64,000 nucleotides of DNA from assembly GCA_029366385.1 (NCBI GenBank), contig GCA_029366385.1_4540.1. The stretch is one strand, 5' to 3'. The stretch comes from a phage. Every line of letters starts with the position of its first letter. Positions within the stretch are counted from its first letter, which is position 1. Below are positions 26,433 to 55,647 of the stretch, one piece after another. Both the position numbers and the translations under genes were made by a program. The notes under the pieces were generated by a model. The model saw nothing but the letters and a program-made list of their open reading frames with translations, was not told the origin of the DNA and searched no databases.

Positions 26433-27227
26433 ATGTCCGAGAAAATCAGCCTGAAAAAACGTCAAGAAAACCTTGCTTTCTCTCTGAAAAAGAATAAGAA
26501 CCTGAATGAAGGTAAGATTGTTCTTCGTGTAGCATGTGCTCTAGATATTTCTGGTAGTATGCATGGTCTATATTCTAGTGGGGTAGTAAGTGATTTTGTA
26601 GGTAAACTGCTTCCTTTTGGTATGTTGTTCGACGATAATGAACAAATTGACATGTGGGCCTTCAATACGAGTTCTCAAGAGCTTACTCCAGCAACAGCAG
26701 ACGTTTACGATGACTATGTTGGTAAATGTATGCGTAATATTCGTATTGGAGGTGGAACAAATTACGCCCCTGTAATGGCAGATATCTACGATGAGTATTT
26801 TGGCACTGTTACCAAATATGTTACCACTAAACAAGTGGTACAAGAGGAGGCTCCAAAGAAAGGCTTCTTTAATCGTCTGCTTGGTAAAACTGAAACAGTA
26901 TCTGTAGAGCGTGAAAAGGTTGTAGCTGTATCTGAACCAGGTGCTGACGTTACCCCTGGTGTTGTATTCTTCCAGACGGATGGTGAGAATGGTGATCCTA
27001 GTGCTGTTCGTCGTCTTATTGAAGAGAATAAGAATAAGCCTATCTATTGGTTCATGGTTGGCGTTGGTAATGAGAAGTTCAGCTTCCTGAAAGAACTGGC
27101 AAATGCTTATGATAATGTTGGTTTTATTGGCATTAAAGATTTAGACTTGACAGATTCAGAGCTTTATGACAAACTCTTATCTGAAGAGTTCGGAGAGTGG
27201 GTTGTTAAAGTAGGTGCTAAAAAATGA
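26433..27227 (+). CDS. von Willebrand factor A (vWA) domain protein, TerY-like, with TerD-like N-terminal segment
   Basis: 264 aa; MIDAS-type ALDISGSM; N-terminus MSEKISLKK resembles the TerD N-terminus. Confidence 0.65.
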   Translation: MSEKISLKKRQENLAFSLKKNKNLNEGKIVLRVACALDISGSMHGLYSSGVVSDFVGKLLPFGMLFDDNEQIDMWAFNTSSQELTPATADVYDDYVGKCMRNIRIGGGTNYAPVMADIYDEYFGTVTKYVTTKQVVQEEAPKKGFFNRLLGKTETVSVEREKVVAVSEPGADVTPGVVFFQTDGENGDPSAVRRLIEENKNKPIYWFMVGVGNEKFSFLKELANAYDNVGFIGIKDLDLTDSELYDKLLSEEFGEWVVKVGAKK

Positions 27228-27472
27228 TCGACGAGCTTGCCTCTCAAGTCGTAGAAAATTATTGGCGCGAGAGAGAAGCTTTCATTATGCGCAGTCTCAA
27301 AGAATATTTCATTGGGACTGTGCGGATGGAAGATATTGTAAGTAGAGTAGAGATTCATGTATGGCCTGATTATGAAGAATGGGTTGACAAAGAAAATGAA
27401 AATGCTATAATTCTTCGTATATACAAACCGGAGATAACATTAGGAGGAAGAAGTGTTAAACTTCGAAATTGA
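27224..27472 (+). CDS. Hypothetical protein
   Basis: 82-aa ORF. Confidence 0.45.
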   Translation: MIDELASQVVENYWREREAFIMRSLKEYFIGTVRMEDIVSRVEIHVWPDYEEWVDKENENAIILRIYKPEITLGGRSVKLRN

Positions 27473-27722
27473 TGAGCAAAAAATAAATAAACGATGCCTT
27501 ACCATTAAAGATTTGGATGTAGGAGATACTTTCGTCTATGAAAATGCATTTGACGAAAATGGTTTAGACCTTAGTGAAGTCATTGTTTATTTAAAAGTAG
27601 ATGATGGGGAAAATGATTATTCTGCTGTAGAACTAAACCATCATGCACAATTAGTAGCAATCCAAAACACATCTAAGCTTTTGGAAGTAGAATTGACTGT
27701 AACTGGTATTACACTTAAATAA
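27453..27722 (+). CDS. Small protein, paralog B of 26153-26431
   Basis: 89 aa, GTG start after AGGAGG. Confidence 0.5.
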   Translation: MLNFEIDEQKINKRCLTIKDLDVGDTFVYENAFDENGLDLSEVIVYLKVDDGENDYSAVELNHHAQLVAIQNTSKLLEVELTVTGITLK

Positions 27723-27737
27723 TAGAGGAGACAAAAG

Positions 27738-28340
27738 ATGACTGATAAAATTTCCCTGAAAAAAGGCTCTAGCGAAAAAATTTCCCTGAAGAAAGTTGCT
27801 CCGGCTCTGAAAGAACTGCGCCTGGAATTCTCTTGGAAATCTGATTCTAAACTGGATCTGGATGTAAGTGCACTGGTTTGTCGTCACAATGCCGCTGGCA
27901 ATCCGGAAATGCTGTCTGCACGTCATCTGGTTTGCTATGCTAACAAGTTTGATCCTGAACGTTCTACCTTCGCTGGTGACGATGTTCGTGATGGAACTGG
28001 CAGCATGGAGCAGATTGATATTACTCTGGCTAAAATCTCTCCTGATGCACAAGAGATTGCCTTTGTTCTGACCATTGATGATGATACAGGTCTGAAACGT
28101 TTTGGTCATGCTTCTGAAGGTATGCTTAAAATCTTCGACTCCGAGCGCAATGTGGAAATTCTGGATTTTGACTTCCTGGCTCCTGAAGTAGCTGGCAACA
28201 CAATCTGCCACGTGGCTTCCTTGGTTCGTGAAGATGGGGAATGGAAACTGAAAGCATATGGTGTAGGTAAAGCTGGTCTGGATATTTGCGATGTGGTGAT
28301 GGCCTTCGGTGGTAAAAAAGAATGGTATGAATGTCCATAA
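27738..28340 (+). CDS. terD: TerD-domain stress protein
   Basis: 200 aa; aligns by eye with enterobacterial TerD (ISLKKG..ISLKK, FVLTIDD, DGEWKLKAYGVGKAGL); CTG/CGT/GGT-rich codon usage. Confidence 0.85.
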   Translation: MTDKISLKKGSSEKISLKKVAPALKELRLEFSWKSDSKLDLDVSALVCRHNAAGNPEMLSARHLVCYANKFDPERSTFAGDDVRDGTGSMEQIDITLAKISPDAQEIAFVLTIDDDTGLKRFGHASEGMLKIFDSERNVEILDFDFLAPEVAGNTICHVASLVREDGEWKLKAYGVGKAGLDICDVVMAFGGKKEWYECP

Positions 28341-28355
28341 TTAACAAATGATTTT

Positions 28356-28375
28356 GAGGGGGAGAAATCCCCCTC
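28356..28375 (+). terminator. Stem-loop with GAAA tetraloop (terminator-like or RNA processing site)
   Basis: 8-bp stem GAGGGGGA / TCCCCCTC; 16 nt after terD stop; no long T-run. Confidence 0.4.
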
Positions 28376-28404
28376 TTGCAATAAAGCCTCTATCGTGTTA
28401 TACT
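28376..28404 (+). promoter_or_regulatory. Putative promoter TTGCAA-N17-TATACT with extended -10 (TGt)
   Basis: TTGCAA 28376-28381, TG 28396-28397, TATACT 28399-28404. Confidence 0.4.
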
Positions 28405-28436
28405 AGAAATTCGTTAACTTAAAAAGGAGGCAAAAT

Positions 28437-28958
28437 TTGCTGATAAAAAACTTTGTAACAGTTGCGTTACTATCCTTAACTGCTTTTACATTTACACCTG
28501 TTGTGGCGAAAGCCGAAGCTGCAAACGTAAAAACCGCTAAAGTAGTTCACAAATGTACAAAGCAATATAATGATAAAATTCTATTAGCTTGTGCAATTTA
28601 CGCAGAAGGTCGCGGTCTGGGTAAAAAAGGAATGAATGCCGTTGGGAATGTGGTAATCAACAGAAGAAATGATGCCTACTTCCCTAACACAGTCAAGGGA
28701 GTCTTGTTCCAGAAAGGGCAATTCTCATATGCGAAAACTTTTAACGTGACAGAGAAAGATAAATGGCAGGAAGCAAAAGCAATAGCGGAGCGTTTACTTT
28801 ATTTAGAGAAACATTTTCCTGAATTGCGGTCTGTTTTAGATGTTACTAAAGGTGCTCTATACTTCAAGAAACGGAATATAAGGACACACTGGGAGCGTGA
28901 TATGCGTCTTGTTTATCGAGATAAAGTGCATGGTTTCTATCTACCAAAGGGGAGTTAA
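28437..28958 (+). CDS. Secreted SleB/CwlJ-type cell-wall hydrolase
   Basis: 173 aa, TTG start after AAGGAGG; signal peptide; CAIYAEGRG..GMNAVGNVVINRR..FPNTVKGVLFQKGQFS matches the SleB-type hydrolase pattern. Confidence 0.6.
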   Translation: MLIKNFVTVALLSLTAFTFTPVVAKAEAANVKTAKVVHKCTKQYNDKILLACAIYAEGRGLGKKGMNAVGNVVINRRNDAYFPNTVKGVLFQKGQFSYAKTFNVTEKDKWQEAKAIAERLLYLEKHFPELRSVLDVTKGALYFKKRNIRTHWERDMRLVYRDKVHGFYLPKGS

Positions 28959-29659: not shown

Positions 29660-30223
29660 ATGATTTATTATATTACTCCCTATCTGACAGGAAATATCGG
29701 CAAGGCTATCAATGAAGCTATTGCCGTTCTTCCAGATGATAGTTGGGTGTGCTTAAGAGATACCGATACAATGTTCCTCCTGCCTGATCAACCATCTATG
29801 CTTGAAGAGCTTGTTATGTCAAACCCGCCTTTTGATGTAATAGGTGCAACTTGTAACAGGTTAGGTAGTGGTTATCAGCTTTTCTCTAACCAAATTAACG
29901 ATGATCCAGATATTCTAAACCATATAGAATATGCTAAGATTGCAAGAGAATATCATAAAGTGAGTGTTGAAGAAGTTCCTTTCGGAACACCTCTGGCAGG
30001 TTTCTTTTTGCTTTTTAGAAAATCATTGTGGAATGAAATTCCTTTCGAAGAAAAATCTATCCAATTCGACTTAATTTTCTCTCGCACTTTACATGAAAAA
30101 GGAAAGAGGTTAGGATTGATGCGGGGAATGTATCTGTTTCACATTTACAGATTAGGTCAAACAAATCCTCAACGGTCTATACATCATTTATTACACTGTC
30201 ACGATCACAGTAAAACTATTTAG
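29660..30223 (+). CDS. Putative glycosyltransferase (GT-A-like)
   Basis: 187 aa; N-terminal ITPYLTGNIGKAINEAIAVL ... CLRDTDTMF resembles GT-A nucleotide-sugar binding region. Confidence 0.4.
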   Translation: MIYYITPYLTGNIGKAINEAIAVLPDDSWVCLRDTDTMFLLPDQPSMLEELVMSNPPFDVIGATCNRLGSGYQLFSNQINDDPDILNHIEYAKIAREYHKVSVEEVPFGTPLAGFFLLFRKSLWNEIPFEEKSIQFDLIFSRTLHEKGKRLGLMRGMYLFHIYRLGQTNPQRSIHHLLHCHDHSKTI

Positions 30224-30231
30224 GAGAGAAA

Positions 30232-30915
30232 ATGGAAAATATTAAAATCGGAGTGGGTGTTATCACTGTAGGTGTCCGTCCACTTAAAGACTACCTTGTA
30301 ACAGATCCACATGCAGATTTTCGAGTATTCAACGATCCAGATCGTAAAGGTGTAGCTTACGCCAGGAATGAACTTATGCACCAGTTTTATGAAGAAGGTT
30401 ATGATTATTGGTTTATTTTTGACGACGATTGCTACCCAATCATGGAGGGATGGGAAACATATTTTGTAGATCAAGCTGTCTCTGGAGGATGGGATTTCTT
30501 TGGTATGCCGGAGTATTTCAAAGATAAAGTTGTTGGGAGTAAAGGAGAAGTTATTCTCTGGGAACTTGCAATGTGTCAATTTGCAATGTATTCTCGTGCC
30601 GTTGTTGAGAAGATGGGTTATTTCCGCCCTTACACTCACGGCTATGGTTTTGAAGATGCTGAATGGGTACACCGTTTGAAAGCTGCTGGTTTGAATCAGG
30701 GCATTCAGGCAATACCTTGTCCACTTCGTATCATGGCTTATATCCACCCAGACGATGTTTTTGGAAACAATCTTATGCCTTTTGCTAATCTGACAAAAGA
30801 AGAGAAAGAAGTTGCTATTGGCATTAACTGGGAAGAATATAAAGCGTCTTTAGAAGATATTAAAAATGGGAAAATCCGAATTTCTTATGAGGAGGCACTG
30901 GCACATGTCAAATAA
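30232..30915 (+). CDS. Glycosyltransferase family 2-like
   Basis: 227 aa; GVGVITVG ... GVAYARN ... YWFIFDDDCYP (DxD). Confidence 0.55.
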   Translation: MENIKIGVGVITVGVRPLKDYLVTDPHADFRVFNDPDRKGVAYARNELMHQFYEEGYDYWFIFDDDCYPIMEGWETYFVDQAVSGGWDFFGMPEYFKDKVVGSKGEVILWELAMCQFAMYSRAVVEKMGYFRPYTHGYGFEDAEWVHRLKAAGLNQGIQAIPCPLRIMAYIHPDDVFGNNLMPFANLTKEEKEVAIGINWEEYKASLEDIKNGKIRISYEEALAHVK

Positions 30916-31852
30916 AAAATGGACTAAACTGAAAATTGATGCAAAACCTCACAGTGGTTGTGATTATCATCGTATTGTTATACCATTTAACAACAATAAT
31001 TTTCAGCCTAAGAAAGATGTTGTCGTGTTTAACCGTATTCATTCTAAAGGGGCAGAATATGTTCTGTCCCTGAAACGTCAAGGTGTTAAGATTGTTGTAG
31101 ATTTAGATGATTTCTACCAACTTAATCCAGAACATTATTTAGCAAGTTTATATGAGTCAAACACTCATGCTATTGTAGCTATGGTTAAGCTTGCCGATGT
31201 GGTCATTGTGACTACGGAATATTTGGCATATAAGATCCGTCACTTAAATAGGAATGTTGTTGTGATCCGAAATGCACTTCCTTTTGATAGCGGACAATTC
31301 ACTTTGTCAAATGATCGTTCATCCGGTACCCCTGTTGTATGGGCTGGCGGTGCTAGTCACGAACCCGATTTACGACTAGTCTCTAATACTTTCGATGATG
31401 AACTTCTTACTATTGCAGGATATGAAGCATCGCAGAGTATCACAGGGCAAGAGTGGATTAAGATCCGTAGAAATTTACCAAACGCCAAATATAAAGCTGC
31501 TGTAAAAGATTTAGATAATTACATGAGTGTTTACGAAAGTCATGCTATTGCTATAGCTCCTTTGGTAGACAATGATTTTAATAATTGTAAAAGTAATCTC
31601 AAAATCCTTGAAGCTGGGGCAAAAGGTATTCCGATTGTTTGTTCTAAGGTATTACCTTATTTTAACCCTGTAGATGCTCGCGCTGTTGCTTACGCAGAGA
31701 ATAAAGCTGAATGGCATTACGAAATTGTTAAGCTTCTTCGCAATCCGAACTATCGGGAAGATCGCGGCTTGTTCTTAGCGGAACATGTTCGAACACATTA
31801 TAATCTGGCAGATGCAAACGAATTGCGACGCCAGGTTATTGAAAGTTTGTAG
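30905..31852 (+). CDS. Putative glycosyltransferase (GT-B-like), paralog of 31860-32804
   Basis: Track ORF 30866-31852 taken from ATG 30905 after GAGGAGG; KSNLKILEAGAKGIPIV. Confidence 0.5.
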   Translation: MSNKKWTKLKIDAKPHSGCDYHRIVIPFNNNNFQPKKDVVVFNRIHSKGAEYVLSLKRQGVKIVVDLDDFYQLNPEHYLASLYESNTHAIVAMVKLADVVIVTTEYLAYKIRHLNRNVVVIRNALPFDSGQFTLSNDRSSGTPVVWAGGASHEPDLRLVSNTFDDELLTIAGYEASQSITGQEWIKIRRNLPNAKYKAAVKDLDNYMSVYESHAIAIAPLVDNDFNNCKSNLKILEAGAKGIPIVCSKVLPYFNPVDARAVAYAENKAEWHYEIVKLLRNPNYREDRGLFLAEHVRTHYNLADANELRRQVIESL

Positions 31853-31859
31853 GTGAAGT

Positions 31860-32804
31860 ATGGGACAAATAATTCTTGACAATCGTAACGGAATCAATTA
31901 TAGTGTCTGCGATTTCCATAGGGTAGTGCTGCCTTACTCAAGGCAGTTCTCTTCACAACCTAAACACAACGTTTTCGTTTTTAACGGAGTGCCAACAAAA
32001 GGTAAAGAGGGCTTTTTAGCCCTTAAAAACCTGGGCTTTAAAATGGTTATGGATTTGGATGACTCTTTAGTTATTCCAAAAGGACACATGTTAGAAGGTA
32101 TTTTTGAATCAGGTATTCGTGAACATTTAAAATGGTTTTTAGAGCACAGTGATCTTGTTACAACTACGACACCTGCCTTGCAAGTTGAACTTTCACAATA
32201 CAATGATAATGTGCACATAATCCCTAATGGACTTCCTTACGATGAAGGTCAATTTGTGTTGACCCGTGATCGCTACTCCAAAACTCCATTAGTCTGGGCT
32301 GGAAGTGAAACACATAAACAAGATTTGGCTATCTTGCCCGATTTTGGTAAAGATCTTACAATATGTGGTTTTCGTAGGGATTCTGAAGTTTTAAGTAGTC
32401 GTGAATGGTCTTTAATCAGGGAAAATGTAGCACCAACTTGTGTTTATGAAGGTGTAAGACCATATGCCTACTACATGGAATCTTACGATGGTCATCAAAT
32501 CAGTCTTGCACCATTGATCGATAACGTGTTTAATAATGCAAAAAGCAATCTTAAAATTCTTGAGGCAGGTGCTAAGGGTTTACCTTTAATCTGCTCTCCT
32601 CGTGAGAATTATCATACACAAGAGTTTAAAGATTTGTTATTCTTTGCTGAAACACCTTCCGAGTGGAAAGATATTACGGAATACTTATTAAGTGCTCCCG
32701 ATGTTTGCATGGAGAAAGGATTAGCATTAGCTAAGTATGTCAGGACTCATTATCACATTGATGTGTTGAATGAGCGTCGTAGACTTTTATTTGAGGAGCT
32801 ATAA
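31860..32804 (+). CDS. Putative glycosyltransferase (GT-B-like), paralog of 30905-31852
   Basis: 314 aa; CDFHRVVLPY ... MDLDD ... KSNLKILEAGAKGLPLI collinear with upstream paralog. Confidence 0.5.
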   Translation: MGQIILDNRNGINYSVCDFHRVVLPYSRQFSSQPKHNVFVFNGVPTKGKEGFLALKNLGFKMVMDLDDSLVIPKGHMLEGIFESGIREHLKWFLEHSDLVTTTTPALQVELSQYNDNVHIIPNGLPYDEGQFVLTRDRYSKTPLVWAGSETHKQDLAILPDFGKDLTICGFRRDSEVLSSREWSLIRENVAPTCVYEGVRPYAYYMESYDGHQISLAPLIDNVFNNAKSNLKILEAGAKGLPLICSPRENYHTQEFKDLLFFAETPSEWKDITEYLLSAPDVCMEKGLALAKYVRTHYHIDVLNERRRLLFEEL

Positions 32805-33094: not shown

Positions 33095-34873
33095 GTGTCG
33101 CACATTATAACTAAATATGGATTTGATGTTGATCTTAGCAAGGAAGGACATACAGGTTGTCCGCGCTGCATGAAAAATGGCAAGGATCGCTCTCGTAATA
33201 ACCTGATGGTTTATGGATTAGATTCTAATGGAGAGCATAAAGGTGCTAAGTGCTTTGCGTGTGAATACACTATTCCTAGCGTAGAATGGTTACGAGAAAA
33301 TGGTGAAGTTTTAGAAGAAGAGGAGGAGATTGTGGGTTCGGAATTTAATAAACAGATTCATCGTAAAATTGTTCAAGAAACATCAACCAACCCACGTGGT
33401 TATCGAGGCATTAAAGAAAAAGTTTCATCTTTCTATGGTGTTCGTTATGAATACCGTCAGGAAGGGGATCAGATGGTAGTAGAAAGTTGTTTATATCCAA
33501 CTACCATCGGTAAAGAATTGGTTGGTTTTAAGCGTCGTATTCATCCTAAAGATTTCAGTAAACCTATTGGTCAAGTAGGTAAAGATGTAGATCTTTTTGG
33601 ACAAATTCGTTTTGCAGATCGTTCTCATACTGTTGTAATTACAGGTGGTGAACACGATGCTCTGGCAGCTTATCAAATGCTATCTGAAAACTTGGACAGT
33701 AAATATGAGCTTCCAGCCGTAGTAAGTGGCACAACTGGTGAAACCAGTATGTATAAACAAGTTCAGGCACAATATCCTTTCTTTGAAAAATTTAAGAAGA
33801 TTATTGTTTGCATGGATAACGACAAAGCAGGTAACGAGGCATTTGAAAATATTGTTAAGGTGCTGCCTCGTAACAAAGTCTACCGTATGCAGATGGATCT
33901 TAAGGATGCCAATCAGTATCTGGAAGAAGGCCGTGCAAAAGATTTCGTAAAAGCTTTTTGGAGTGCTCGTCTATACACCCCAGCAGGTGTTTATGCTTCT
34001 AATGTCTTGTATGAAGCTGCATTGGAATGCTTGGAATCCAAGATGATTACCTTGCCTCCTTTTATGCGTGTTGCTGCAAACATGTTGGGTGGTGGTTTAG
34101 TAGAGGAAGAGATTACAGTCATCCTGGCAAAGACCAGTATCGGTAAAACTTTGATGGTGAACGAGATCACCAAACATATTATTGTTGCACACCCAGAACA
34201 TACCCTAGGTATTCTGTCCTTGGAAGCGACTTATAAAAAGTATTCTCGTAACCTGTTATCCTCTTTCCTACACATTCCTCTACACAGGAAAACACCGGAA
34301 GAGAAATTTCAAATCTTGGAAGAGAATAAAGAAAAAATCCTAGATTTTTACGAAAGAGAAGATGGATCACCACGTTTTTACGTGTGTGATGATCGTGGAG
34401 CAGATGTGGAGTCTATCAAAGAAAAAGTTTTGGAGATGATCATCTATTTTGGAGTAACAATTCTTGTTATCGACCCTTATTCTGATTTGCTTTCTGGTAT
34501 GGATGTTCAAGCCCAGGAAGAGTTAGCAACATGGTTGAAGCGAATCATGAAAGAGTATGCTATAACTATTATCGTCATCTCACACGTTAAGAAGTCAGCT
34601 AATGGTGGCAATGAGCACTTAACAGAGGACGATGCAATGGGTAGTAGTTTCTTGGCTAAAGGTGCTGGTATTACCTTGGCTTTGGAACGAGATAAGGCTG
34701 CTGAAGATCCTGTAGAACGTAATACAACTCATTGCTTTATCCTAAAAAACCGTGAGTTCTCGGAGACTGGTCCAGCAGGGCAGTTTTACTATGACATTAG
34801 AACTGCAACTCTTCACGACAAAGAGCAGTATTTTAACAACCCTGCTAACTTACCTACGGATAGCAACTACTAA
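33095..34873 (+). CDS. Bifunctional DNA primase/helicase (T7 gp4-like)
   Basis: 592 aa, GTG start; N-terminal Cys4 zinc finger, TOPRIM-like region, DnaB-type Walker A AKTSIGKT. Confidence 0.85.
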   Translation: MSHIITKYGFDVDLSKEGHTGCPRCMKNGKDRSRNNLMVYGLDSNGEHKGAKCFACEYTIPSVEWLRENGEVLEEEEEIVGSEFNKQIHRKIVQETSTNPRGYRGIKEKVSSFYGVRYEYRQEGDQMVVESCLYPTTIGKELVGFKRRIHPKDFSKPIGQVGKDVDLFGQIRFADRSHTVVITGGEHDALAAYQMLSENLDSKYELPAVVSGTTGETSMYKQVQAQYPFFEKFKKIIVCMDNDKAGNEAFENIVKVLPRNKVYRMQMDLKDANQYLEEGRAKDFVKAFWSARLYTPAGVYASNVLYEAALECLESKMITLPPFMRVAANMLGGGLVEEEITVILAKTSIGKTLMVNEITKHIIVAHPEHTLGILSLEATYKKYSRNLLSSFLHIPLHRKTPEEKFQILEENKEKILDFYEREDGSPRFYVCDDRGADVESIKEKVLEMIIYFGVTILVIDPYSDLLSGMDVQAQEELATWLKRIMKEYAITIIVISHVKKSANGGNEHLTEDDAMGSSFLAKGAGITLALERDKAAEDPVERNTTHCFILKNREFSETGPAGQFYYDIRTATLHDKEQYFNNPANLPTDSNY

Positions 34874-34892
34874 GGGCTTCGGCCCTTTTATT
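34872..34892 (+). terminator. Rho-independent terminator (UUCG loop)
   Basis: Stem AAGGGC / GCCCTT, loop TTCG, then TTTTATT. Confidence 0.6.
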
Positions 34893-34903
34893 AAAAATAC
34901 CTG

Positions 34904-34932
34904 TTGACAACTTTGCGGAAGGGACTTATACT
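34904..34932 (+). promoter_or_regulatory. Putative strong promoter TTGACA-N17-TATACT
   Basis: Consensus -35, 17-nt spacer, near-consensus -10; about 35 nt upstream of ATG 34966. Confidence 0.5.
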
Positions 34933-34965
34933 TGTCTCATCAACCAAACAAGAGGAGAAGTAAAA

Positions 34966-35397
34966 ATGCGTATGACAATCGATCTGAATGCAAAAGTTAA
35001 AGCTGCTGGTGCTCTGGGTGCTGGTGTTATTAAACACAAACAAGCGTTGGCATTTGCCATCCCACACATGATTGTTGAGGATCATCCTGAAGAGTTTGCT
35101 GTAAAAGTTGTTGAGAACAATGTCTCTGTTATTGAACATCTTCCAACTGGACGTTCTTACCGTGTTGTTTCTTCTAAAGGTTTTCGTTTCGATGTAAGCC
35201 CTTCTTTCACAAAAGGTGCTGGTCGTAGTAAAGTGGGTATTCTTTCTTACAAATATTATATCGATAAAGTTGCAGATGGTGTTGCATTCTGTCGTGTAAG
35301 TGAAGGTAAAGTAGATATCATCTTTAAAAATACCAAAAACATGGTTATTTCTGATGATGGTAAAGTTGACCTCACTATTGAGTTCGCTAACAACTAA
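34966..35397 (+). CDS. Hypothetical protein, probably abundant
   Basis: 143 aa; own promoter; codon usage visibly skewed to GGT/CGT/GCT/GTT. Confidence 0.55.
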   Translation: MRMTIDLNAKVKAAGALGAGVIKHKQALAFAIPHMIVEDHPEEFAVKVVENNVSVIEHLPTGRSYRVVSSKGFRFDVSPSFTKGAGRSKVGILSYKYYIDKVADGVAFCRVSEGKVDIIFKNTKNMVISDDGKVDLTIEFANN

Positions 35398-35406
35398 GGA
35401 GGACTA

Positions 35407-36201
35407 TTGAGCAAGTTGAACACACTTGATCAATATTACACTAACCCCGCTTATGCGGGGTTCTTATGTGATAAGATCAAAGAAATTTTTGGAGAGGAAG
35501 CTAACTACGTAGAACCATCTGCGGGAGAAGGAGCTTTCTCTTCTTGTTTTAAAAACATAACTTCTTTTGATATTGACCCTAAGTTTGAAGATTGTATTGA
35601 GGCAGATTTTTTAGCTCAATCTGTTGAGTCTGTTGGTAGTGTAACGGCTTTTGTTGGTAATCCTCCATTCGGAAAAAACGCTAGTCTTGCCATTAAGTTC
35701 TTTAACCATTGTGCTGAAATGCTGGATAACGAAGGTGGTATTTGTTTTATCTTACCTCGCACATTTCAAAAAATCTTTTTTGCACACAAACTAAATCCTT
35801 ATATGCATCTTCTTCACGAAGAAGAGTGTCCCAAAGGATCTTTTATTCTTCATGGAGAACCTTGGGATGTTCCTTGTGTATTCCAAATATGGATTAAACG
35901 CAGCCAGAAGCGTTCTCCCGTTGTTTTAGGAGAGAATCGACTGTTCGTATTAGGTAACAGCAAAGACTACGACATAGCTGTTAGGAGAGCCGGAGCAAGC
36001 GCAGGTAAAGTGCTAACAGAAGAAGATTCTTTATCTGAAGCATCTACCTATTTTTTAAAAGCCTTGACTTCTGATCTTAAAACACGTATCATTGAGGCTT
36101 ACCCGTTACTTAAAACTGAAGCTAGTAAAACTGCGGGAGTAAGAAGTTTAAGTTTAAAAGAACTTCAGTGGGTTCTGGAGAACATTAGAAAGGAGGAATA
36201 G
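35407..36201 (+). CDS. N6-adenine DNA methyltransferase
   Basis: 264 aa, TTG start after TAAGGAGG; LDQYYTNP, VEPSAGEGAF (AdoMet motif I), GNPPF (motif IV). Confidence 0.7.
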   Translation: MSKLNTLDQYYTNPAYAGFLCDKIKEIFGEEANYVEPSAGEGAFSSCFKNITSFDIDPKFEDCIEADFLAQSVESVGSVTAFVGNPPFGKNASLAIKFFNHCAEMLDNEGGICFILPRTFQKIFFAHKLNPYMHLLHEEECPKGSFILHGEPWDVPCVFQIWIKRSQKRSPVVLGENRLFVLGNSKDYDIAVRRAGASAGKVLTEEDSLSEASTYFLKALTSDLKTRIIEAYPLLKTEASKTAGVRSLSLKELQWVLENIRKEE

Positions 36202-38798
36202 TGAGTAAGTTTACATGGGATATTGAAGCAAATGGATTGTTGAATAATGATACTATTGATTATTTAGCTAGTCCTTATCGTCTCAAAGACACATTTCAAA
36301 TGCACTGTATTGTCTTAGAGAACCATGAAACAGGAGAAATAGTAGCTTTCCACGATGGCCCTAAATACATTTTTGATGGTCGTCCTTATGAAGAGTCAGA
36401 TGATAAATATACATATGTTCTTAAAGAATATGTGGCGCAAGATTACACACATTTTCAACTAAAAGATTTCCCAGATTTTATTAATCATGAAGGTTATTTT
36501 AAAGACAAGCCTGAATATTTGGTTGAAATGGCTGTGGCACACAACGGTATCAACTATGACTGGTTGGCTACAAAACTGTTTTATGGATTAGATTACAGTG
36601 TTAAATATAACACGTGGGGTAAAAGCAAGGTAAAACTTATTGACTCCTTAATTTTGAGTAAAGTGTTAAACCCAGATCGAAAGATTGAGGGCAAATCAGG
36701 ACATAGCTTGGCAGCACTTTCTCGAAAGGCAGGCGGGGATGTAAAAATAGATTTCCGTAAAGAGATTCCAGAAGAAGATCGATTTAAGACTTTTGCTGCG
36801 GATATGCTTTATTACTGTATCTATGATAACAAAGCCAACACAAGTGTATATAATTACCTCATGGAAGAATGGGGTGATTATGATAAATGGGAAGGTCCAT
36901 TTGAACTTGAACAACGTGTAGCAGACATTATTACACGCCAGGAACACCGTGGGTTTGCTTTTAACATGAAACAAGCAGAAGAGAACCTTGCTTTTTTGGA
37001 TGCAGAAATGGAGCGTCTTCGTTTACTCGTTGAGCCTATTTTGCCACCTAAACCAGCAACAAAAGGTTATCTTAAAGCTTTTATTCCACCTAAGTTGCAA
37101 ATTAAAAAGAACTTAGAGCCAACTAACCATATGATCAATTTTGCTAAAAAACATGATGGTCATTTGGAAGAGAAGGATGGAGATTGGTGGTTAGTTATGC
37201 TTGGGAAAGAGTGGAAACTGCCAGTTGCAGCAGATGAACCTCTATGTGATCCTAACATCCCTGCAACATTGAACGATACAACCCATATTAAAAACTGGCT
37301 TGTAGGATTAGGTTGGGTACCGTCTGAATATAAAGATAAAGACTTGACTCTTAAATCTGGCACCAAAATTAAAAAGAGCGAGGAAGAACTTCAGAAAGGT
37401 ATTCGAGCTTACGTTGAGCAAACTCTATCTTCTAATTTTTGTCAGGATCGTTGTGATCATCTGGAGTGCACACCGGAAACCTTGGAAAGGAAGATTCAAG
37501 AGCGTATAGCAAAAGGTAAAGGTCGCGGTCTTAAAGTATTGACTAACCCATGTTTTACCAAAGGTCAGGAAAAAGAAATTTGTCCTAACCTGCAAGCTTT
37601 GGGTGAGAAGTTTCCTTATGCTACACAGATTGTAGAATACTTAACGTATAAGCATCGTAGGAACTCTATTTTAGGTGGCGGTGCTGATTGGGAAGAAGAT
37701 GAAGAAGATCAAGAATACGATAAAGGTTTCTTAGCCGCAGTAAGGGCGGATGGTCGTATTCCTACCCCAGCAGCTACATGTGATGCTGCAACCTCTCGTA
37801 TGAAGCATAGGTCTGTAGCTAATATTCCTCGTGTCACATCTTTGTTTGGATGGGAGATGCGTAACTTGTTTGGTGTAGAGGTTCCTAAATACTTCCAGAT
37901 CGGTTATGACTTCGACTCTTTGGAAGCAAAGATTGAGTCGCATTATTGTTGGCGCTACGAACCGGAGCCTCATGAATACTGTAACGCTCTCTTGTTAGAG
38001 AAGCCTAACGATGTTCATACCATGATGGCAAAACGTATTACAGATACTATTGGGCGTAAATTTGAACGTAGTCCGGCGAAATCTGTTAAATACGGGATCA
38101 CTTATGGTGCACAAGCAGACAAGGTTGCTAAAACAATTGGTAGCGATAAATACACAGGGCAACTGGTGTTCGATGCTTTCTGGGAAGCTGCATTCCCACT
38201 GGCGCGTCTTAAAGAACGTTTAAACGATTTCTGGGTTAAGACTGGTAAACAGTATGTTTTGGGTATTGACGGTCGTAAGGTTCCTACTCGTTCTGCTCAC
38301 GCGATTCTTAACTCTCTGTTCCAAAGTGGTGGGGTTATCTGTGCTAAACGTGCAATGGTTATTTATGACGACATGATCGAAGAAGAAGGGCTAAGTGTTG
38401 ACTTCTTTAAAGATGACTGGAAGAATAAAGACTTCGTGCAACAAATGATTGCATACCACGATGAAGCCCAGCTTGAAGTTTCTCGTAACCTTGTAGAATT
38501 CAAATGGTTTTCACCTGAATCATTAGGTTGGAAGAAAGTAGACGATCCTGAAGAACAAAAGAAAATTGATAAAGAATGTCTTGCTAAAGTCGAAGAATGG
38601 AAGCATAATAAGGAAAAAGAGACAGGGCAAATTTGGGCTAACATTCATGAATCTCCCAAAGGTGGATGGTTTACAGCCTATAGTCGGGCAGGTGAACTTG
38701 CTGCTTTAGCTGTTACTAAGGCTGGAGAATTTTACAATCTTAACGTTCAGCTTACTGCCGGATATGATGTGGGTAATTCCTGGGCATCCTGTCATTGA
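36201..38798 (+). CDS. Family A DNA polymerase with 3'-5' exonuclease domain
   Basis: 865 aa, GTG start; Exo I WDIEANGL, motif A DFDSLEAKI, motif B RSPAKSVKYGITYG, motif C YHDE. Confidence 0.9.
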   Translation: MSKFTWDIEANGLLNNDTIDYLASPYRLKDTFQMHCIVLENHETGEIVAFHDGPKYIFDGRPYEESDDKYTYVLKEYVAQDYTHFQLKDFPDFINHEGYFKDKPEYLVEMAVAHNGINYDWLATKLFYGLDYSVKYNTWGKSKVKLIDSLILSKVLNPDRKIEGKSGHSLAALSRKAGGDVKIDFRKEIPEEDRFKTFAADMLYYCIYDNKANTSVYNYLMEEWGDYDKWEGPFELEQRVADIITRQEHRGFAFNMKQAEENLAFLDAEMERLRLLVEPILPPKPATKGYLKAFIPPKLQIKKNLEPTNHMINFAKKHDGHLEEKDGDWWLVMLGKEWKLPVAADEPLCDPNIPATLNDTTHIKNWLVGLGWVPSEYKDKDLTLKSGTKIKKSEEELQKGIRAYVEQTLSSNFCQDRCDHLECTPETLERKIQERIAKGKGRGLKVLTNPCFTKGQEKEICPNLQALGEKFPYATQIVEYLTYKHRRNSILGGGADWEEDEEDQEYDKGFLAAVRADGRIPTPAATCDAATSRMKHRSVANIPRVTSLFGWEMRNLFGVEVPKYFQIGYDFDSLEAKIESHYCWRYEPEPHEYCNALLLEKPNDVHTMMAKRITDTIGRKFERSPAKSVKYGITYGAQADKVAKTIGSDKYTGQLVFDAFWEAAFPLARLKERLNDFWVKTGKQYVLGIDGRKVPTRSAHAILNSLFQSGGVICAKRAMVIYDDMIEEEGLSVDFFKDDWKNKDFVQQMIAYHDEAQLEVSRNLVEFKWFSPESLGWKKVDDPEEQKKIDKECLAKVEEWKHNKEKETGQIWANIHESPKGGWFTAYSRAGELAALAVTKAGEFYNLNVQLTAGYDVGNSWASCH

Positions 38799-40478: not shown

Positions 40479-41366
40479 ATGTCCGTAATTAATACTGAAA
40501 CTGATCGTAAAGGCAAAACCGTAACTTATGCAACTGGTATCGTAGACTACGTTAAACTGGATAAATTCGCTGAACCTAAAACTTTTCATTGGGAAGGAAA
40601 AACGATTGTTTCAACTCACCGAGCTTCTCTTGTTCTGAAAGAGAAAGGTGCTAAACCAGATGAGAAAGGTGTTTGGATTTCTCTTGGTGACATTGAACTG
40701 AAAGAAGGTTATGAAAACCTGCAAGTCAAAGAAGGTGATAATTGGATCACTATTGAAAAAGGTGTAGAAGTAAGTATTGATATTGATCGCGTTGATAATA
40801 AAGGCGGTAAGACTTACTACAATACTAAAAAATCTCGTATTACAGTATTGTCTACCGATGGTGTTCAGAAGTCTAACAAATCTTCTGGCAATAAAGGTTC
40901 CAACGATGCTGCTCCTAAGCAGTCCTATAAAAAACGTGATACTGTAGGTCTGGAAACTGGTCACGCAGTAAATGGTGCACTGGAACTGATTCGTAATGGT
41001 GTTAAAGGCGATGCTTTCGATATCGCTGGGGTTGTTCAATCTGCAACTGTCACGCTGAAATCTGAAATTGCTGAATCTCGTGGCGTTGATATTAATGATT
41101 ATGATCTTGGGGCATCTGTTGGTCACGCTATTCTCAATGCTTGTAAAGACCATACCATTAAGACTGTATCTGTAGAAGATCTGATTGACTCTGCTCGTAA
41201 AGTTCTGGCTCTGTCTGATAAAGTTGCTGCTGCCATTCGTGGTTCCGCAGAACAACCTAAGAAAGAAGAGAAGAAAGAAGAGAAGAAACCTGAACCACAA
41301 CCAGAACCAACTCCAAGTAATCAAGAAGAACCTCCAATGGACTTCGACGATGATATCCCATTCTGA
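40479..41366 (+). CDS. SSB-like protein with enterobacterial SSB C-terminal tip
   Basis: 295 aa; last 12 residues EPPMDFDDDIPF match my recollection of the E. coli SSB C-terminus; Lys/Glu-rich linker; biased codon usage. Confidence 0.5.
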   Translation: MSVINTETDRKGKTVTYATGIVDYVKLDKFAEPKTFHWEGKTIVSTHRASLVLKEKGAKPDEKGVWISLGDIELKEGYENLQVKEGDNWITIEKGVEVSIDIDRVDNKGGKTYYNTKKSRITVLSTDGVQKSNKSSGNKGSNDAAPKQSYKKRDTVGLETGHAVNGALELIRNGVKGDAFDIAGVVQSATVTLKSEIAESRGVDINDYDLGASVGHAILNACKDHTIKTVSVEDLIDSARKVLALSDKVAAAIRGSAEQPKKEEKKEEKKPEPQPEPTPSNQEEPPMDFDDDIPF

Positions 41367-41398: not shown

Positions 41399-41430
41399 AA
41401 AAGGGAACCTTTGCGGGTTCCCTTTTTTAT
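41399..41430. terminator. Strong bidirectional rho-independent terminator between convergent blocks
   Basis: Stem AAAGGGAACC / GGTTCCCTTT, then TTTTTT on + strand and A-run (T-run on - strand) on the other side. Confidence 0.6.
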
Positions 41431-44105
41431 TAGTCGTAATATTTCAAACCTGTAATGAACTTCGATCCCCAATCCGCACTTGCGGCGGTGAACGTCAACA
41501 TCCAAGTTGTAGCTGTACCAGTGAAGACCTCTCGTTGCACAGTACCATCAGTGTGGTAAATGTCCACGCCAGTATGTCCATTCTTAGGAATAGTGAAGGT
41601 AACAGCACTGGTAGTGTCTCGTGCATAAGAACAAACAAATGGTGTCCCCGCCCAAACTGGATTTGTCATATCACCCATCTCAAGCTGTGGAACCCAAGCA
41701 ATAAGACCTGCCGTACCATCTCCTGCAAAAGTGTCTGATCCACTTGCATTCAAAGCTATAATCTCATAGGTTATAGATGCTTGTTTGGCAACTGTCACTT
41801 TGTGTAGAATTACACGATACCAACCATTCCCCATATTGATTATGTTTGCATCTGCACCTGTAAATGTTCCAGCTACAAGATCATAAGTCCCTTCGTTAAT
41901 CTCATCTCCTGAAGTCAATTTGAGTTTCACTTTAGTGATCCCATCTGGCTTCAAGAATACGGATGCCGCCCAGTGCTTACCTGCTGTAATATCAGAAGCT
42001 GTATTCACTGCTGATAAAATATGTTGTCCTGAAGTTGTAGAAGGTGTTAACTTGTAAGTGTTAGCTGTAGTTCCAACCGGAGAGTTGATTGTTGATGCTG
42101 TGACTGTCAAGTTCGTCTTCAACCACGGGGAAGCTGTTGTCAAGTTATTGTTGATAAAGATATGTGTACGGTTGGCTGCTACAACACGTCTACCTTGTGG
42201 AGTTGTACCAACATATTCTAAAGGTGCTACGGGAGCAGAACTCTCTGTAGGTACAAGGATATCTCCAGAAGCCCTGGCATAACGGTTACTCCTGTTGACC
42301 TTTACATCCGCCGGAATAGTTTCTTGCGTCAAATCATAGTCCATCACAATCACCACAGCATTCACTGTGAGATAAGAACTATCTTCGGCAGTTACCACAC
42401 CTTGATAAGTTGCTCTACAACCGATACGACAACCTCCATCAGCAACCGCTGTAATAACGCCTGTAACGGGGTCAACTGTTGCTACCGTAGGGTCATTAGA
42501 GAAATACTCAACAACCATACCAGGTAAGCTTGCTGCTCCTGTTGGCGTTATTTCTGCTACCATTGTTTGTGTTGTTCCTACATCCATCGCAGATAAGCTA
42601 GGGGTGTAAACACTCAATGTTGAAGCATATCCTCCAGAGGTATCTGATAAAGTTGTTCCTTCAGCATTTAAGGCTGTCATACCTGCATCAAAACCACCTT
42701 CTGCATGGAAAGTCATTAAACCAGTAGATGATATTGTCATGTTTGCAGGGGCAGAAGAAGTGTATTTAATATTGAAAAGTTTACCTCCTTCTGGGCTAAC
42801 AGAATGTGTCAACTGTTTAGTTCCACCTACAATACAAATTCCTAAAGAATCTGTAGTTAAACCAGTTGCCAGAATATCACCCGTAATCACGGAGCTTGCT
42901 ATTGGTGTGAATTTATTATAGTTTAGACCACTATTGAACAGATACGAGGCTTTCCCATCTTTCCAAATACCGGAATAATACATATCTCCATTATAAACGA
43001 AAAAGGTTCCTTGATAACCTAATTGGTTAGTAACATCCATATTCAGCGTATGAACGCTTGTGAGCTTGTTTATATCCCAAGAACCCACTCCTTCAGGTTT
43101 AACTGGTTTTCCCACTTGAAGTGGATCTCCGCTCGCAGAATCATACCCCAAACCTAAGTTTGCAGTGTAGTTCTTACCAATAGCCCACAAGGAATTATTG
43201 ATCCCAACGAAAAAAGAGTGGCGGCTTGGTGGAAACTTCCATGTTGAGAAACCTGCTGCAAAGGTATCCAGTTTAGTGTAGGTTGTTTCTGTATTAGACC
43301 TAACATATAAGTAGTTTACTGTACCCGTGCCACCGGAGGTATCTCCTACAACTATTGTCTGGGAAACTGTATTGATGTAATCTTTGACATACACTGTTTC
43401 AGTAGCTGATATCTTGGCATTGACAAAAGCTGTTGTTGTGTTATTATTACCTGCTAAACCTTTACTGGCTCCACAAACACGCAAGGTTCCCGCATTATTG
43501 ACATAAGAGCATTGGTTGTAACCTGCATCAAAAGCAACTGCTGAACTTGTTATCTGACGAGGAGTAGAAACTTCGTTAGTAGTACTTGCACCTAAACTGC
43601 CTACTGTGTTTTGACCAGATCCGTAAAGAACACCACTATTCATTAACCAGAGAGTGTTGTTATATCCTCCCTTAACTTCTTTAAGATTGGCTAAAGAGAT
43701 AGTTCCCGTTATTACAGATGGAAAGCTGGTCCAAGTGGTTACACATGCATCCGTACCACCTGCTGCTATAGATCCTACTAATCCTGCTGTCAATCCTGAA
43801 TATTGCCATCCCCCACTGTTAGTTTTAATAACAAAACAACGATCTGCGGTAAACACATCCGCTACTACAGTAGAAGCCAAGTGGAAATTATTGAATCGTG
43901 CACTACGAGTTCCATCTGCAATCTCACCAAAAAGGTTTGCGCCTTGAGTAAACAATCTACCATCATTAAGCAAAATTGCTAAACTGCTGTTAGAATTACC
44001 AGCATTATCTGGGTAATCTAAAGTGATTACTTTTTTAACAATACCCGCTGGCAGAGGAACGACACCAGTGCTGGTCATAATAGTAAATATTGGAATTGGA
44101 AACAT
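41430..44105 (-). CDS. Tail fibre / receptor-binding protein with Ig-like (Big_2-type) segment
   Basis: 891 aa; Ser/Thr/Gly/Asn-rich; TTQTMVAEITPTGAAS..VEYFSNDPTVATVDPVTGVITAVADG resembles a bacterial Ig-like domain. Confidence 0.55.
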   Translation of the reverse strand: MFPIPIFTIMTSTGVVPLPAGIVKKVITLDYPDNAGNSNSSLAILLNDGRLFTQGANLFGEIADGTRSARFNNFHLASTVVADVFTADRCFVIKTNSGGWQYSGLTAGLVGSIAAGGTDACVTTWTSFPSVITGTISLANLKEVKGGYNNTLWLMNSGVLYGSGQNTVGSLGASTTNEVSTPRQITSSAVAFDAGYNQCSYVNNAGTLRVCGASKGLAGNNNTTTAFVNAKISATETVYVKDYINTVSQTIVVGDTSGGTGTVNYLYVRSNTETTYTKLDTFAAGFSTWKFPPSRHSFFVGINNSLWAIGKNYTANLGLGYDSASGDPLQVGKPVKPEGVGSWDINKLTSVHTLNMDVTNQLGYQGTFFVYNGDMYYSGIWKDGKASYLFNSGLNYNKFTPIASSVITGDILATGLTTDSLGICIVGGTKQLTHSVSPEGGKLFNIKYTSSAPANMTISSTGLMTFHAEGGFDAGMTALNAEGTTLSDTSGGYASTLSVYTPSLSAMDVGTTQTMVAEITPTGAASLPGMVVEYFSNDPTVATVDPVTGVITAVADGGCRIGCRATYQGVVTAEDSSYLTVNAVVIVMDYDLTQETIPADVKVNRSNRYARASGDILVPTESSAPVAPLEYVGTTPQGRRVVAANRTHIFINNNLTTASPWLKTNLTVTASTINSPVGTTANTYKLTPSTTSGQHILSAVNTASDITAGKHWAASVFLKPDGITKVKLKLTSGDEINEGTYDLVAGTFTGADANIINMGNGWYRVILHKVTVAKQASITYEIIALNASGSDTFAGDGTAGLIAWVPQLEMGDMTNPVWAGTPFVCSYARDTTSAVTFTIPKNGHTGVDIYHTDGTVQREVFTGTATTWMLTFTAASADWGSKFITGLKYYD

Positions 44106-53970: not shown

Positions 53971-55647
53971 TTATGAATGTAACCTAACATCAGCCGATAC
54001 AATGGAAGAAGCAAGGGGAACTAACGTACCATTACTATTGTAGAAACGTAAAACTAAGTTACGACCAACAACCTCTGGTAGACACACAAACCCTGCCGTT
54101 GATGCTGGGGTTACAGTACAGTTCCGGACCGCATTAGTAGTAACGTGATTTTTGAATACAACAGTAATCTCACCAGTACCGGTATCAGTAACAGAACTGA
54201 ATAGTGAGTTGCTATCTGTTATGGTGATATTTCCGTTGTTGTTCACAATACGACCGAATCGTTCCCAGTTAACGGTAAGGTTAGTTACATTATCCAGCCC
54301 AAAGAACATAGTATCTCTAGGGGTATCTATGTTCAGCACTGATATATCAGAGCAAGTTCCCTGAAATCGCAAGAATGGTTGGGTAACACTACCAGCGTTT
54401 ATCGTATCAGTGACCCCATCAATGGTTAATTGTGAGCAGGAGCCTAGCAATATTGGTGTAGACGCACCGTTACCTGCTATTTTAATGTTCTCGATACGTG
54501 AACGCTGACAACTCAGGGATATCGGGATTAAGCCATTGGTCGTAGCCGTAACTCCTGATTTAGTTTGCATATCAAAGGAGACACCACTAATCAGGAGGTT
54601 GTTAAGAAGAGAACTATCAGCAGGTGTACCACTAATACCATAGACAGTGTCGCTTCCATACTGGAGAACTTGCAAATGCCCATTCTTTATTTGAGTATCT
54701 CTAACTTCTCCGTCATCAGTGTTTAGTGCTACACCACCGTTACCACCTTGCAGCAGGAACCCATCTACCAATACTCGCTTACTATGGCGAATATTAATAA
54801 ACCACATATTACGGTCATCGACGCCTGAATAGCGACCTATAATATTTTTTGCAATAATATCCTCACAGTACGAACCATCTGACTGTACTACGGACACATA
54901 CAGAGCATGGCGACCTAAGTCTCCCTTTGCCTGGTCAGCCTCAAAATTAATACCGTCAATGAGAACTCTCTTACACCCGCCAAGAAGAACTCCATACCCG
55001 CCAGCAACAACATCAGAATGGTATCTATTACCTCTAGAATGCACATCCCTAACAACTGAGTCTGCAACTCTTGTTAGCTGCACGGAGCCTGTATAGCCAA
55101 ATGTATTAATACCAATCATTGAAATATCTGAGCAGTCATTAGCATTAACAGCATACGCCACATTACCCCCAGTTGTAGGGGCATTCACAATTAAACCAGA
55201 AACACGTATATCTCTTACTTTAACTCCGTTCTTTCCATTAATATTCACAGCTTGCGTTTTTGTAGTATTGGAGACTAAACCGCCTACCCCTTGAATTACT
55301 TGGTAGTCAGCCACAGGCGATATTACTGTTGCGATATTAATATCTTTTGCAATCTGCACATCCTGACCATTCGATAGAACTGTTTGGATATTATTGGAAT
55401 ACCCATCAGGACGACGGTCGATAGCATCTAAATCTTCCTGTAAAGTCCCCCGGTGGTTAGTGCCGATAATGGATAAACCTGAATCTGCTCCATCTGTATC
55501 TTTCAACTGGGTGGCTAAAACCACCCCAGTGTCAGTAAGAAAGTTGGAAACTGTGCTTTTAACAGTCTTATCAGGTTGGTCTAAAACCAGGTAATCAGAA
55601 CCATTAACTTTTGATGTTTCGGGTAAATTAGTAATTGTAGTTGACAT
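53971..55647 (-). CDS. Tailspike protein (beta-helix)
   Basis: 558 aa; beta-helix-like repeats (VKVRDIRVSGLIVNAP, ISMIGINTFGYTG, LIDGINFEAD, FINIRHSKRVLVDGFLLQGG). Confidence 0.5.
   Translation of the reverse strand: MSTTITNLPETSKVNGSDYLVLDQPDKTVKSTVSNFLTDTGVVLATQLKDTDGADSGLSIIGTNHRGTLQEDLDAIDRRPDGYSNNIQTVLSNGQDVQIAKDINIATVISPVADYQVIQGVGGLVSNTTKTQAVNINGKNGVKVRDIRVSGLIVNAPTTGGNVAYAVNANDCSDISMIGINTFGYTGSVQLTRVADSVVRDVHSRGNRYHSDVVAGGYGVLLGGCKRVLIDGINFEADQAKGDLGRHALYVSVVQSDGSYCEDIIAKNIIGRYSGVDDRNMWFINIRHSKRVLVDGFLLQGGNGGVALNTDDGEVRDTQIKNGHLQVLQYGSDTVYGISGTPADSSLLNNLLISGVSFDMQTKSGVTATTNGLIPISLSCQRSRIENIKIAGNGASTPILLGSCSQLTIDGVTDTINAGSVTQPFLRFQGTCSDISVLNIDTPRDTMFFGLDNVTNLTVNWERFGRIVNNNGNITITDSNSLFSSVTDTGTGEITVVFKNHVTTNAVRNCTVTPASTAGFVCLPEVVGRNLVLRFYNSNGTLVPLASSIVSADVRLHS

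Follow-up and report, generated by a model that had tools for sequence, protein, structure and literature searches.

A gene of 143 codons at positions 34966-35397 of contig GCA_029366385.1_4540.1 (GenBank assembly GCA_029366385.1) was followed up within a stretch of 64,000 nucleotides, hereafter the window, which derives from a Phapecoctavirus (phAPEC8/ESCO13-like, Stephanstirmvirinae). Our interpretation, which we hold with guarded confidence as somewhat better than evenly balanced, is that the product of this gene is the nuclease-like half of a type II restriction-modification (R-M)-like module, carried by the phage and directed at the word GTAC. The open reading frame (ORF) lies in a T7-like replication module in the order primase/helicase, 143-aa ORF, methyltransferase, DNA polymerase I, and the features on which the argument draws are as follows.

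33095-34873, primase/helicase of the replication module
34872-34893, + strand, hairpin AAGGGC-UUCG-GCCCUU (34872-34887) with the U-rich tail UUUAUU, -9.3 kcal/mol, a probable intrinsic terminator ending the primase/helicase transcript
34904-34932, + strand, sigma-70-type promoter TTGACA-N17-TATACT, 11 of 12 consensus positions
34952-34957, + strand, Shine-Dalgarno sequence GAGGAG, 8 nt before the ATG
34966-35397, + strand, coding sequence of 143 aa with an ATG start (15.6 kDa, pI 9.2), a PD-(D/E)xK-fold protein and the proposed GTAC-directed "R" component
35407-36201, + strand, coding sequence of 264 aa with a TTG start, a gamma-class N6-adenine DNA methyltransferase and the proposed cognate GTm6AC "M" component
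35443-35462, + strand, strong GC hairpin AACCCCGC-UUAU-GCGGGGUU, 45 nt past the stop of the 143-aa ORF, in the 5' portion of the methyltransferase ORF
36201-38798, DNA polymerase I of the replication module
1-64000, genome-wide GTAC depletion, 62 sites against 215 expected

Over the 5.8 kb surrounding the 143-aa ORF, identity reaches 99.3% with phage ESCO25 and 97-98% with about 64 further records; the ORF itself corresponds to HOR21_gp236 of ESCO13, where it carries the label "hypothetical protein". Every Phapecoctavirus record holds it, with 65 records at 95% protein identity or more, the same count as is obtained for the primase/helicase at 99% or more.

The initial annotation had placed the gene behind a terminator and a near-consensus promoter and had read its biased codon usage as the mark of a very abundant protein, and these claims held up on closer analysis. 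Sigma-70 sites matching at least 11 of the 12 consensus positions number ten in the window, against 2.9 +/- 1.4 in shuffled sequence, and only two of the ten, one of them at 34904-34932, are intergenic and lie some 30 nt ahead of the start of a gene. The UUCG hairpin upstream of the promoter is plausible as a terminator on its structure, although its folding energy is not significant by itself (z = -1.2) and a consensus terminator scan did not list it, the T-run criterion being narrowly missed. The codon counts of the ORF are GGT 10/11, CGT 6/6, GCT 7/13, GTT 12/18 and AAA 14/14, such that 35 of its 48 glycine, arginine, alanine and valine codons are of the types named by the initial annotation, against a pooled fraction of 0.454 in the other ORFs (binomial P = 1e-4). 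Its codon adaptation index (CAI) is 0.506, ranking second of 88 ORFs in a window with a mean of 0.269 and a standard deviation of 0.069; these CAI values depend on weights after Sharp and Li (1987), of which the raw codon counts are independent. In two relatives that are 50-57% identical, the homolog ranks first in its region (L003, CAI 0.531, 1/16; L006, CAI 0.395, 1/9). The promoter, the strong Shine-Dalgarno sequence and these CAI ranks support the prediction of high expression. The equivalent gap in L006 holds a promoter-like TTGACT-18-TATGCT with an extended -10 TG, and the same gap in L003 a weaker promoter-like site, read by eye, with a clean terminator directly after the homolog.

Downstream of the ORF, the 91-nt region around the 35443-35462 hairpin folds with -25.7 kcal/mol (z = -3.55), and the hairpin is a possible attenuator or terminator of the 143-aa ORF transcript that would limit read-through into the methyltransferase. 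Together with the TTG start of the methyltransferase, it suggests a much lower output of the methyltransferase than of the nuclease-like protein. The other ORFs with top CAI values in the window are a TerD/TerE-like gene (27738-28340, 0.552), a 295-aa ORF (40479-41366, 0.493) and a 65-aa ORF (8813-9010, 0.444), the last of which has its own 11/12 promoter at 8753-8782. A 12/12 sigma-70 consensus, TTGACA-16-TATAAT, lies at 27384-27411 inside the ORF 27224-27472; it is 42 nt upstream of the ORF 27453-27722 and also upstream of the TerD-like gene.

The protein had been described as lacking any recognisable motif, which remains true of searches of Pfam, NCBIfam, PADLOC and the PDB (by sequence and by profile), none of which gave a match, and no longer holds at the level of the predicted fold. 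The sole PHROGs match is phrog_9938, of unknown function. A word-indexed search of 5.8 billion proteins returned five matching clusters, and an exhaustive profile search of 1.84 billion representatives returned about 20 true members, each of 119-153 aa; a 690-aa repeat protein (P0014) in the profile search was a spurious low-complexity match and was left out. The family is narrow and confined to phages. Given only six close sequences, AlphaFold2 produced no confident model, with a predicted local distance difference test score (pLDDT) of 45.6; with 15 more distant members added, making 21 sequences, the pLDDT rose to 93.3 and the predicted template modelling (TM) score to 0.87. The predicted core has the order alpha-beta-beta-beta-alpha-beta that defines the PD-(D/E)xK restriction-endonuclease fold.

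Five columns are invariant in the 21-sequence alignment (P33, S80, K83, G84 and R87), all within or close to the signature loop F-D-x-x-P-S-x-T-K-G-x-G-R. Acidic residues are best conserved at E38 (76%), D/E50 (71%) and D76 (67%, with N in a further 29%), and the window protein itself carries E38, E50 and D76; among the other charged positions are K/R64 (71%), K/R66 (95%), K83 (100%) and R87 (100%). The third beta strand of the family reads (K/R)-R-(Y/W)-K-V, or S-Y-R-V in the window protein, and a catalytic D...(D/E)xK on strands beta2/beta3, which in this superfamily is often joined by an E on alpha1, was not recognisable in the 21 sequences. Relocated catalytic residues are familiar from other PD-(D/E)xK enzymes, and the active site of the 143-aa family may have been relocated in a similar manner.

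A Foldseek search of the predicted viral structures in BFVD returned the protein's own family first, with a Vequintavirus homolog at a TM score of 0.77, and the first annotated outsider was the "R.RsaI endonuclease" of Synechococcus phage Syn19 (E = 2.2e-3, probability 1.00, TM score 0.66). RsaI cuts GTAC. Profile-profile comparison with the Syn19 family by hhalign gave E = 1e-3 over 61 columns, or 130 with permissive settings, at a probability of about 20%, and the alignment pairs the PSxxxGxGR loop, alpha2, beta4 and beta5, as well as P33 with P64. The Syn19 family shows a canonical E60 / D74, D79 / E89-G-K91 pattern, the residues of which were not reliably placeable in the N-terminal half of the 143-aa family by either global or permissive hhalign. 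In Syn19 the gene for this protein (Syn19_153, 171 aa) overlaps the beta-class methyltransferase gene that comes after it (Syn19_154, PF01555, E = 4e-48), and over the first 150 kb of the 175-kb genome GTAC has an observed-to-expected ratio (O/E) of 0.47 (z = -21.7). In the same 150 kb (L027-L029), CCGG is found 0 times against 250 expected on both strands, and no 4-mer is more depleted than AGCT (z = -26); Syn19 thus avoids several 4-bp palindromes and not GTAC alone.

In the window a gap of 9 nt separates the 143-aa ORF from the 264-aa protein, whose motif order is that of the gamma class (EPSAGEGAF, then GNPPFG); it matches the PADLOC MTase_II model PDLC03255 over its full length (E = 8e-35) and, weakly, Eco57I as well. 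An ortholog that is 54% identical adjoins the homolog in Vequintavirus with the gene order swapped, in all 121 of 121 records. Orthologs of 41-43% identity overlap the homolog by 8 nt in the environmental phages L009, L013 and L014, and others of 37-44% identity stand beside homologs in the IMG/VR loci L018-L022. The L009 pair sits among nucleotide-metabolism genes, outside a replication module. In the lineages represented by P0005 (50% identical, L003-L005) and P0004 (57% identical, L006-L008) the small gene again follows the primase/helicase and adjoins the DNA polymerase gene, and no such methyltransferase was found near it. The position of the methyltransferase is filled by a 112-aa ORF in the P0005 lineage (L003, 6475-6813), which had no match in NCBIfam, the sole library scanned. 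A second, paralogous gamma-type methyltransferase (30-39% identical) is present at L018 19688-20161 and L022 9787-10533, and in these loci the depletion of GATC is even stronger (z of about -8 to -10). A methyltransferase homolog from Poseidonibacter is followed by a 199-aa ORF unrelated to the 143-aa family (hhalign E = 0.18).

Counts of palindromic 4-mers were compared with a maximal-order Markov expectation, an analysis prompted by a paper quantifying N6-methyladenine (m6A) at GATC and GTAC in Vequintavirus. The 62 GTAC sites of the window, where 215 were expected, make this the most depleted of all 136 strand-symmetric 4-mers (z = -18.8), and GTAC is also the most depleted 4-mer in ESCO13 (z = -10.1) and in L009 (4 against 40, z = -10.3). 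In the lineages lacking the methyltransferase, which were sampled as stretches of 4-12 kb, GTAC is again the top outlier (z = -13.0 and -8.3), falling to zero in L003-L005 (against 48, 50 and 39 expected) and in L006-L007 (against 22 and 22). The control was PHB05, a phi92-like phage of the same subfamily and the same host species in which no homolog of either the 143-aa gene or the methyltransferase was found; here GTAC stands at 3.52/kb with an O/E of 0.78, and in a 50-kb stretch of E. coli K-12 at 2.78/kb with an O/E of 0.90. At about 2.8/kb, an E. coli chromosome would hold roughly 13,000 such sites. Of the 62 sites in the window, 15 fall in a pair of genes for tail or tail-fibre proteins (41430-44105 and 53971-55647, - strand), at 3.4/kb against 0.79/kb elsewhere, and this density suggests recent acquisition of both genes by recombination from phages that do not avoid GTAC.

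Two small ORFs of PHB05, one between primase/helicase and polymerase and one beside an adenine methyltransferase, were considered as possible homologs and both proved unrelated to the 143-aa family. The most depleted 4-mer of PHB05 (L016) is CATG, of which the two strands hold 118 copies where 298 would be expected (z = -13.1), and at 27542-28661 this phage encodes a different "adenine-specific methyltransferase" of 243 aa overlapped by an unrelated ORF that is likewise of 143 aa; the two could form a comparable module with CATG as its target. The window (z = -8.1) and L003 (z = -5.9) are likewise depleted of CATG.

E. coli K-12 is not known to have a GTAC methyltransferase. Nanopore sequencing of wild-type Bas51, a Vequintavirus, gave 1405 m6A calls at GATC, 509 at GTAC and 576 elsewhere (PMC12548924, Figure 4f, S4 Table), whilst a T83P methyltransferase mutant gave 35, 511 and 349, respectively (PMC12548924). 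Extrapolated site numbers of about 710 GATC x 2 and about 235 GTAC x 2 agree with the 1405 and 509-511 calls if methylation is near-complete. In the related JeffSchatz (Bas55), the 177-aa methyltransferase bas55_0173 carries D69, D79 and T83 (IIT-NPPY) and a nearby glycosidase carries R87, an exact match to the published escape mutations (PMC12548924); the gamma-type enzyme has Q69, A79 and I83 at the same positions and does not match them. Because the escape mutations match the 177-aa enzyme and the GTAC calls persist in T83P, Gm6ATC is attributed to that enzyme and GTm6AC to another. Within the 45 kb inspected, just one further adenine methyltransferase is annotated, namely the gamma-type gene beside the family member bas55_0192.

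Four independent observations converge on GTAC: the word is purged, its loss correlates with gene content, the nearest annotated structural neighbour is RsaI-like, and GTm6AC occurs in a phage bearing the family. They are most simply explained by the interpretation given at the outset, that the 143-aa protein is the nuclease-like partner of the adjacent methyltransferase. The purge and its correlation with gene content, like the expression signals, the fold and the gene linkage, were established here, and the GTm6AC of Vequintavirus DNA is taken from the literature. The proposed course of events is that host RNA polymerase would transcribe the gene early from its own strong promoter, and that efficient translation would yield an abundant 15.6-kDa basic protein which would recognise unmethylated GTAC and most likely cut there. 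Such cleavage would destroy the DNA of the host and of co-infecting phages and supply nucleotides to the flanking T7-like replication machinery. The phage's own DNA would escape since most GTAC sites have been selected out and those left over would be N6-methylated by the downstream gamma-class enzyme; lineages purged of every GTAC could then dispense with the methyltransferase and lose it. The recognition of GTAC by the protein, the cleavage and the choice of host DNA as target are steps that we infer. Since a single word is purged in carriers of the gene, a sequence-specific action on non-self DNA is indicated in preference to chromatin-like binding, and since total loss of the site where the methyltransferase is absent points to a very high cost of leaving a site unprotected, cleavage or some other form of DNA damage is favoured.

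However, several points weigh against this interpretation and it should be considered with caution. The codon bias is not shared by the homologs in L009 (CAI rank 11/19) or Vequintavirus LL12 (14/15), and neither L009 nor Vequintavirus has a separate promoter for the homolog. A Foldseek search of the PDB gave no significant match (best E 0.18), no acidic column is invariant in the 21 family sequences, and as the cyanophage D79/E89-x-K91 has no recognisable counterpart, nuclease activity is left without motif support. The similarity to the Syn19 protein is itself weak, with 11% identity and an hhalign probability of about 20%, and "R.RsaI" is the annotator's label, unconfirmed against authentic R.RsaI. 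GTAC depletion is mild in Vequintavirus LL12 (20 against 32), and in L018-L022 it ranks only second to fourth (z of -3.9 to -8.9) with GATC more depleted, so that other forces must also shape the genomes of these environmental phages. We propose the gamma-type enzyme as the source of GTm6AC by elimination, within 45 kb of Vequintavirus sequence and thus in a different genus. In principle, the avoidance of the site could also have been imposed by host enzymes.

The alternative that we take most seriously, unlikely as we judge it to be, is that the protein is a catalytically dead derivative of a restriction enzyme, which would act stoichiometrically as an abundant clamp or roadblock at the host's GTAC sites, roughly 13,000 in number, to shut off transcription and replication of the host or to exclude competitors, with the phage escaping through site loss and methylation. 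All of the GTAC evidence applies to it equally, and a non-cleaving clamp is kept in play by the lack of a canonical catalytic motif, there being neither an invariant acid nor a D...(D/E)xK in a family whose invariant S80, K83, G84 and R87 lie in a basic loop. The very strong expression signals would suit a stoichiometric binder better than an enzyme, and a pI of 9.2 also agrees with binding. Against this, a fall in GTAC to 0 from about 50 expected per 12 kb implies a very high cost per site, which is easier to explain by a double-strand break than by a displaceable roadblock, and the window protein retains E38, E50 and D76 in a fold whose catalytic residues are known to move. R.PabI, an unrelated GTAC enzyme, has base excision or lyase activity. 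Stated more broadly, a restriction fold that lacks the canonical metal triad and makes each unmethylated GTAC lethal could act either as a non-cleaving clamp or through non-canonical chemistry at S80/K83/R87 (base excision or lyase), to which we likewise give a minor share of our belief.

That GTAC avoidance and the methyltransferase serve as a defence against GTAC-cutters of the host, leaving the small protein to junction resolution (in the manner of T7 endonuclease I or Hjc) or to a role as a replisome accessory, seems improbable to us. The phi92-like PHB05 infects the same host species without avoiding GTAC, and the small gene and the methyltransferase are linked across very distant phages, in L009 outside a replication module; the control and this tight, ancient linkage make a purely host-driven avoidance less likely. 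The nearest annotated viral neighbour is moreover a GTAC enzyme and no resolvase, the conserved E / D / E-x-K tetrad of Hjc/T7 endonuclease I-type resolvases is not present, and it would be left unexplained why the gene persists, with its strongest expression, precisely in lineages that have no GTAC. The same retention of the gene where no sites are left to shield led us to reject a site-shielding anti-restriction protein. As for the general architectural or nucleoid-associated protein or other abundant early effector of the initial annotation, the idea of an abundant early effector that binds DNA points the right way, whilst the architectural part found no support; a protein without sequence specificity would be small, basic and by prediction highly expressed, as this one is, but the restriction fold, the methyltransferase linkage and the purge of one word are unexpected for a non-specific binder, and we consider this very improbable. 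Less credible still is a free-standing homing endonuclease of the I-Ssp6803I type lodged between two conserved replication genes; the gene is not sporadic, being found in as many records as the primase/helicase and in synteny in relatives of 50-57% identity, it is under strong purifying selection with the best codon adaptation in the region and a linked methyltransferase, and long target sites would not be expected to cause avoidance of a 4-mer. We give equally little credence to a modification-dependent nuclease (DpnI/BisI-like) that cuts GTm6AC, as it would be suicidal in Bas51, whose virions carry methylation at practically every GTAC, and would lack a substrate in the lineages without the methyltransferase, where avoidance and expression are nevertheless strongest.

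Two further observations concern the surroundings of the locus and its database records. Upstream of the replication genes, the window holds four successive ORFs (29660-32804) that are labelled glycosyltransferases in ESCO13, and the BASEL paper mentions a putative dTDP-glycosylation machinery in phi92-like relatives. About 20 phage records numbered MG0656xx and named "Campylobacter phage ..." are 97-98% identical to E. coli Phapecoctavirus/Vequintavirus over these genes, and are probably mislabelled or contaminated entries.

Phages of the phAPEC8-like and rV5-like groups are among the commonest E. coli isolates and are used in therapy cocktails, and the 143-aa family is labelled "hypothetical" in every record examined. 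Were our interpretation correct, these phages would carry an offensive restriction-like weapon, providing a mechanism for the destruction of host DNA or host shut-off and for the exclusion of co-infecting phages, and a compositional feature, the purging of GTAC to zero in some lineages, would be explained. A widespread family of phage methyltransferases, numbering over 2,400 relatives, would receive a specificity (GTm6AC), and the known enzymes would be joined by a GTAC-recognising protein of very small size (about 140 aa) whose active site is unusual. It would also follow that GTAC-bearing payloads could harm engineered phages of the methyltransferase-less lineages. If instead the clamp or the non-canonical chemistry were true, a new form of viral discrimination between self and non-self DNA would be at hand, its footprint being the genome-wide loss of one 4-bp word. 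A literature search turned up no report that connects GTAC or RsaI to these phages. Virus-encoded R-M against host DNA is already known from the chloroviruses, as is the "RsaI-like" gene label in a cyanophage; what appears to be new is the assignment of a "hypothetical" coliphage family, its atypical active-site region, and the series that runs from a methyltransferase with partial purging to total purging with loss of the methyltransferase.

Among the closest known systems is the RsaI-type R-M gene pair of Syn19 (Syn19_153/154), in which a small PD-(D/E)xK-fold protein likewise has a PSxxxGxGR loop followed by alpha2-beta4-beta5 and its gene lies immediately upstream of the methyltransferase, as an overlap of the kind seen in relatives of the window pair, in a virulent and GTAC-depleted phage. 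The two differ in that Syn19 has the canonical E60/D79/E89-x-K91, none of which is recognisable here, where an invariant K83 lies in the loop; in that the partner is a beta-class N6_N4 methyltransferase (PF01555) there and gamma-class here; and in that the R gene here is preceded by a strong promoter of its own and shows extreme codon adaptation. Solved small PD-(D/E)xK nucleases, namely I-Ssp6803I (2OST), NhoI (8Q5N), Hjc (2WCW) and PvuII (1NI0), share 7-11% identity with the protein, with no sequence-level match in the PDB; their catalytic motif is not conserved here, and their biology is that of homing, 5-methylcytosine-dependent restriction and junction resolution.

In phage T4, Alc and EndoII/EndoIV act on cytosine-containing DNA, the phage DNA carrying hydroxymethylcytosine, and so an early phage function there too acts on host DNA by means of a mark that is absent from phage DNA. 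The proteins are unrelated, and the mark proposed here is a 4-bp word together with adenine methylation as opposed to a wholesale base substitution. In concept there is a parallel with the chloroviruses PBCV-1 and NY-2A, whose R-M systems, such as R.CviQI/M.CviQI (G^TAC / GTm6AC), degrade host DNA early in infection: compared by description, both are lytic viruses with a nuclease aimed at host DNA and self-protection by adenine methylation, and the same GTAC/GTm6AC is proposed here. The coliphage module would differ in having a bacterial and not a eukaryotic host, and in its heavy reliance on the purging of sites, to the point that some lineages have lost the methyltransferase.

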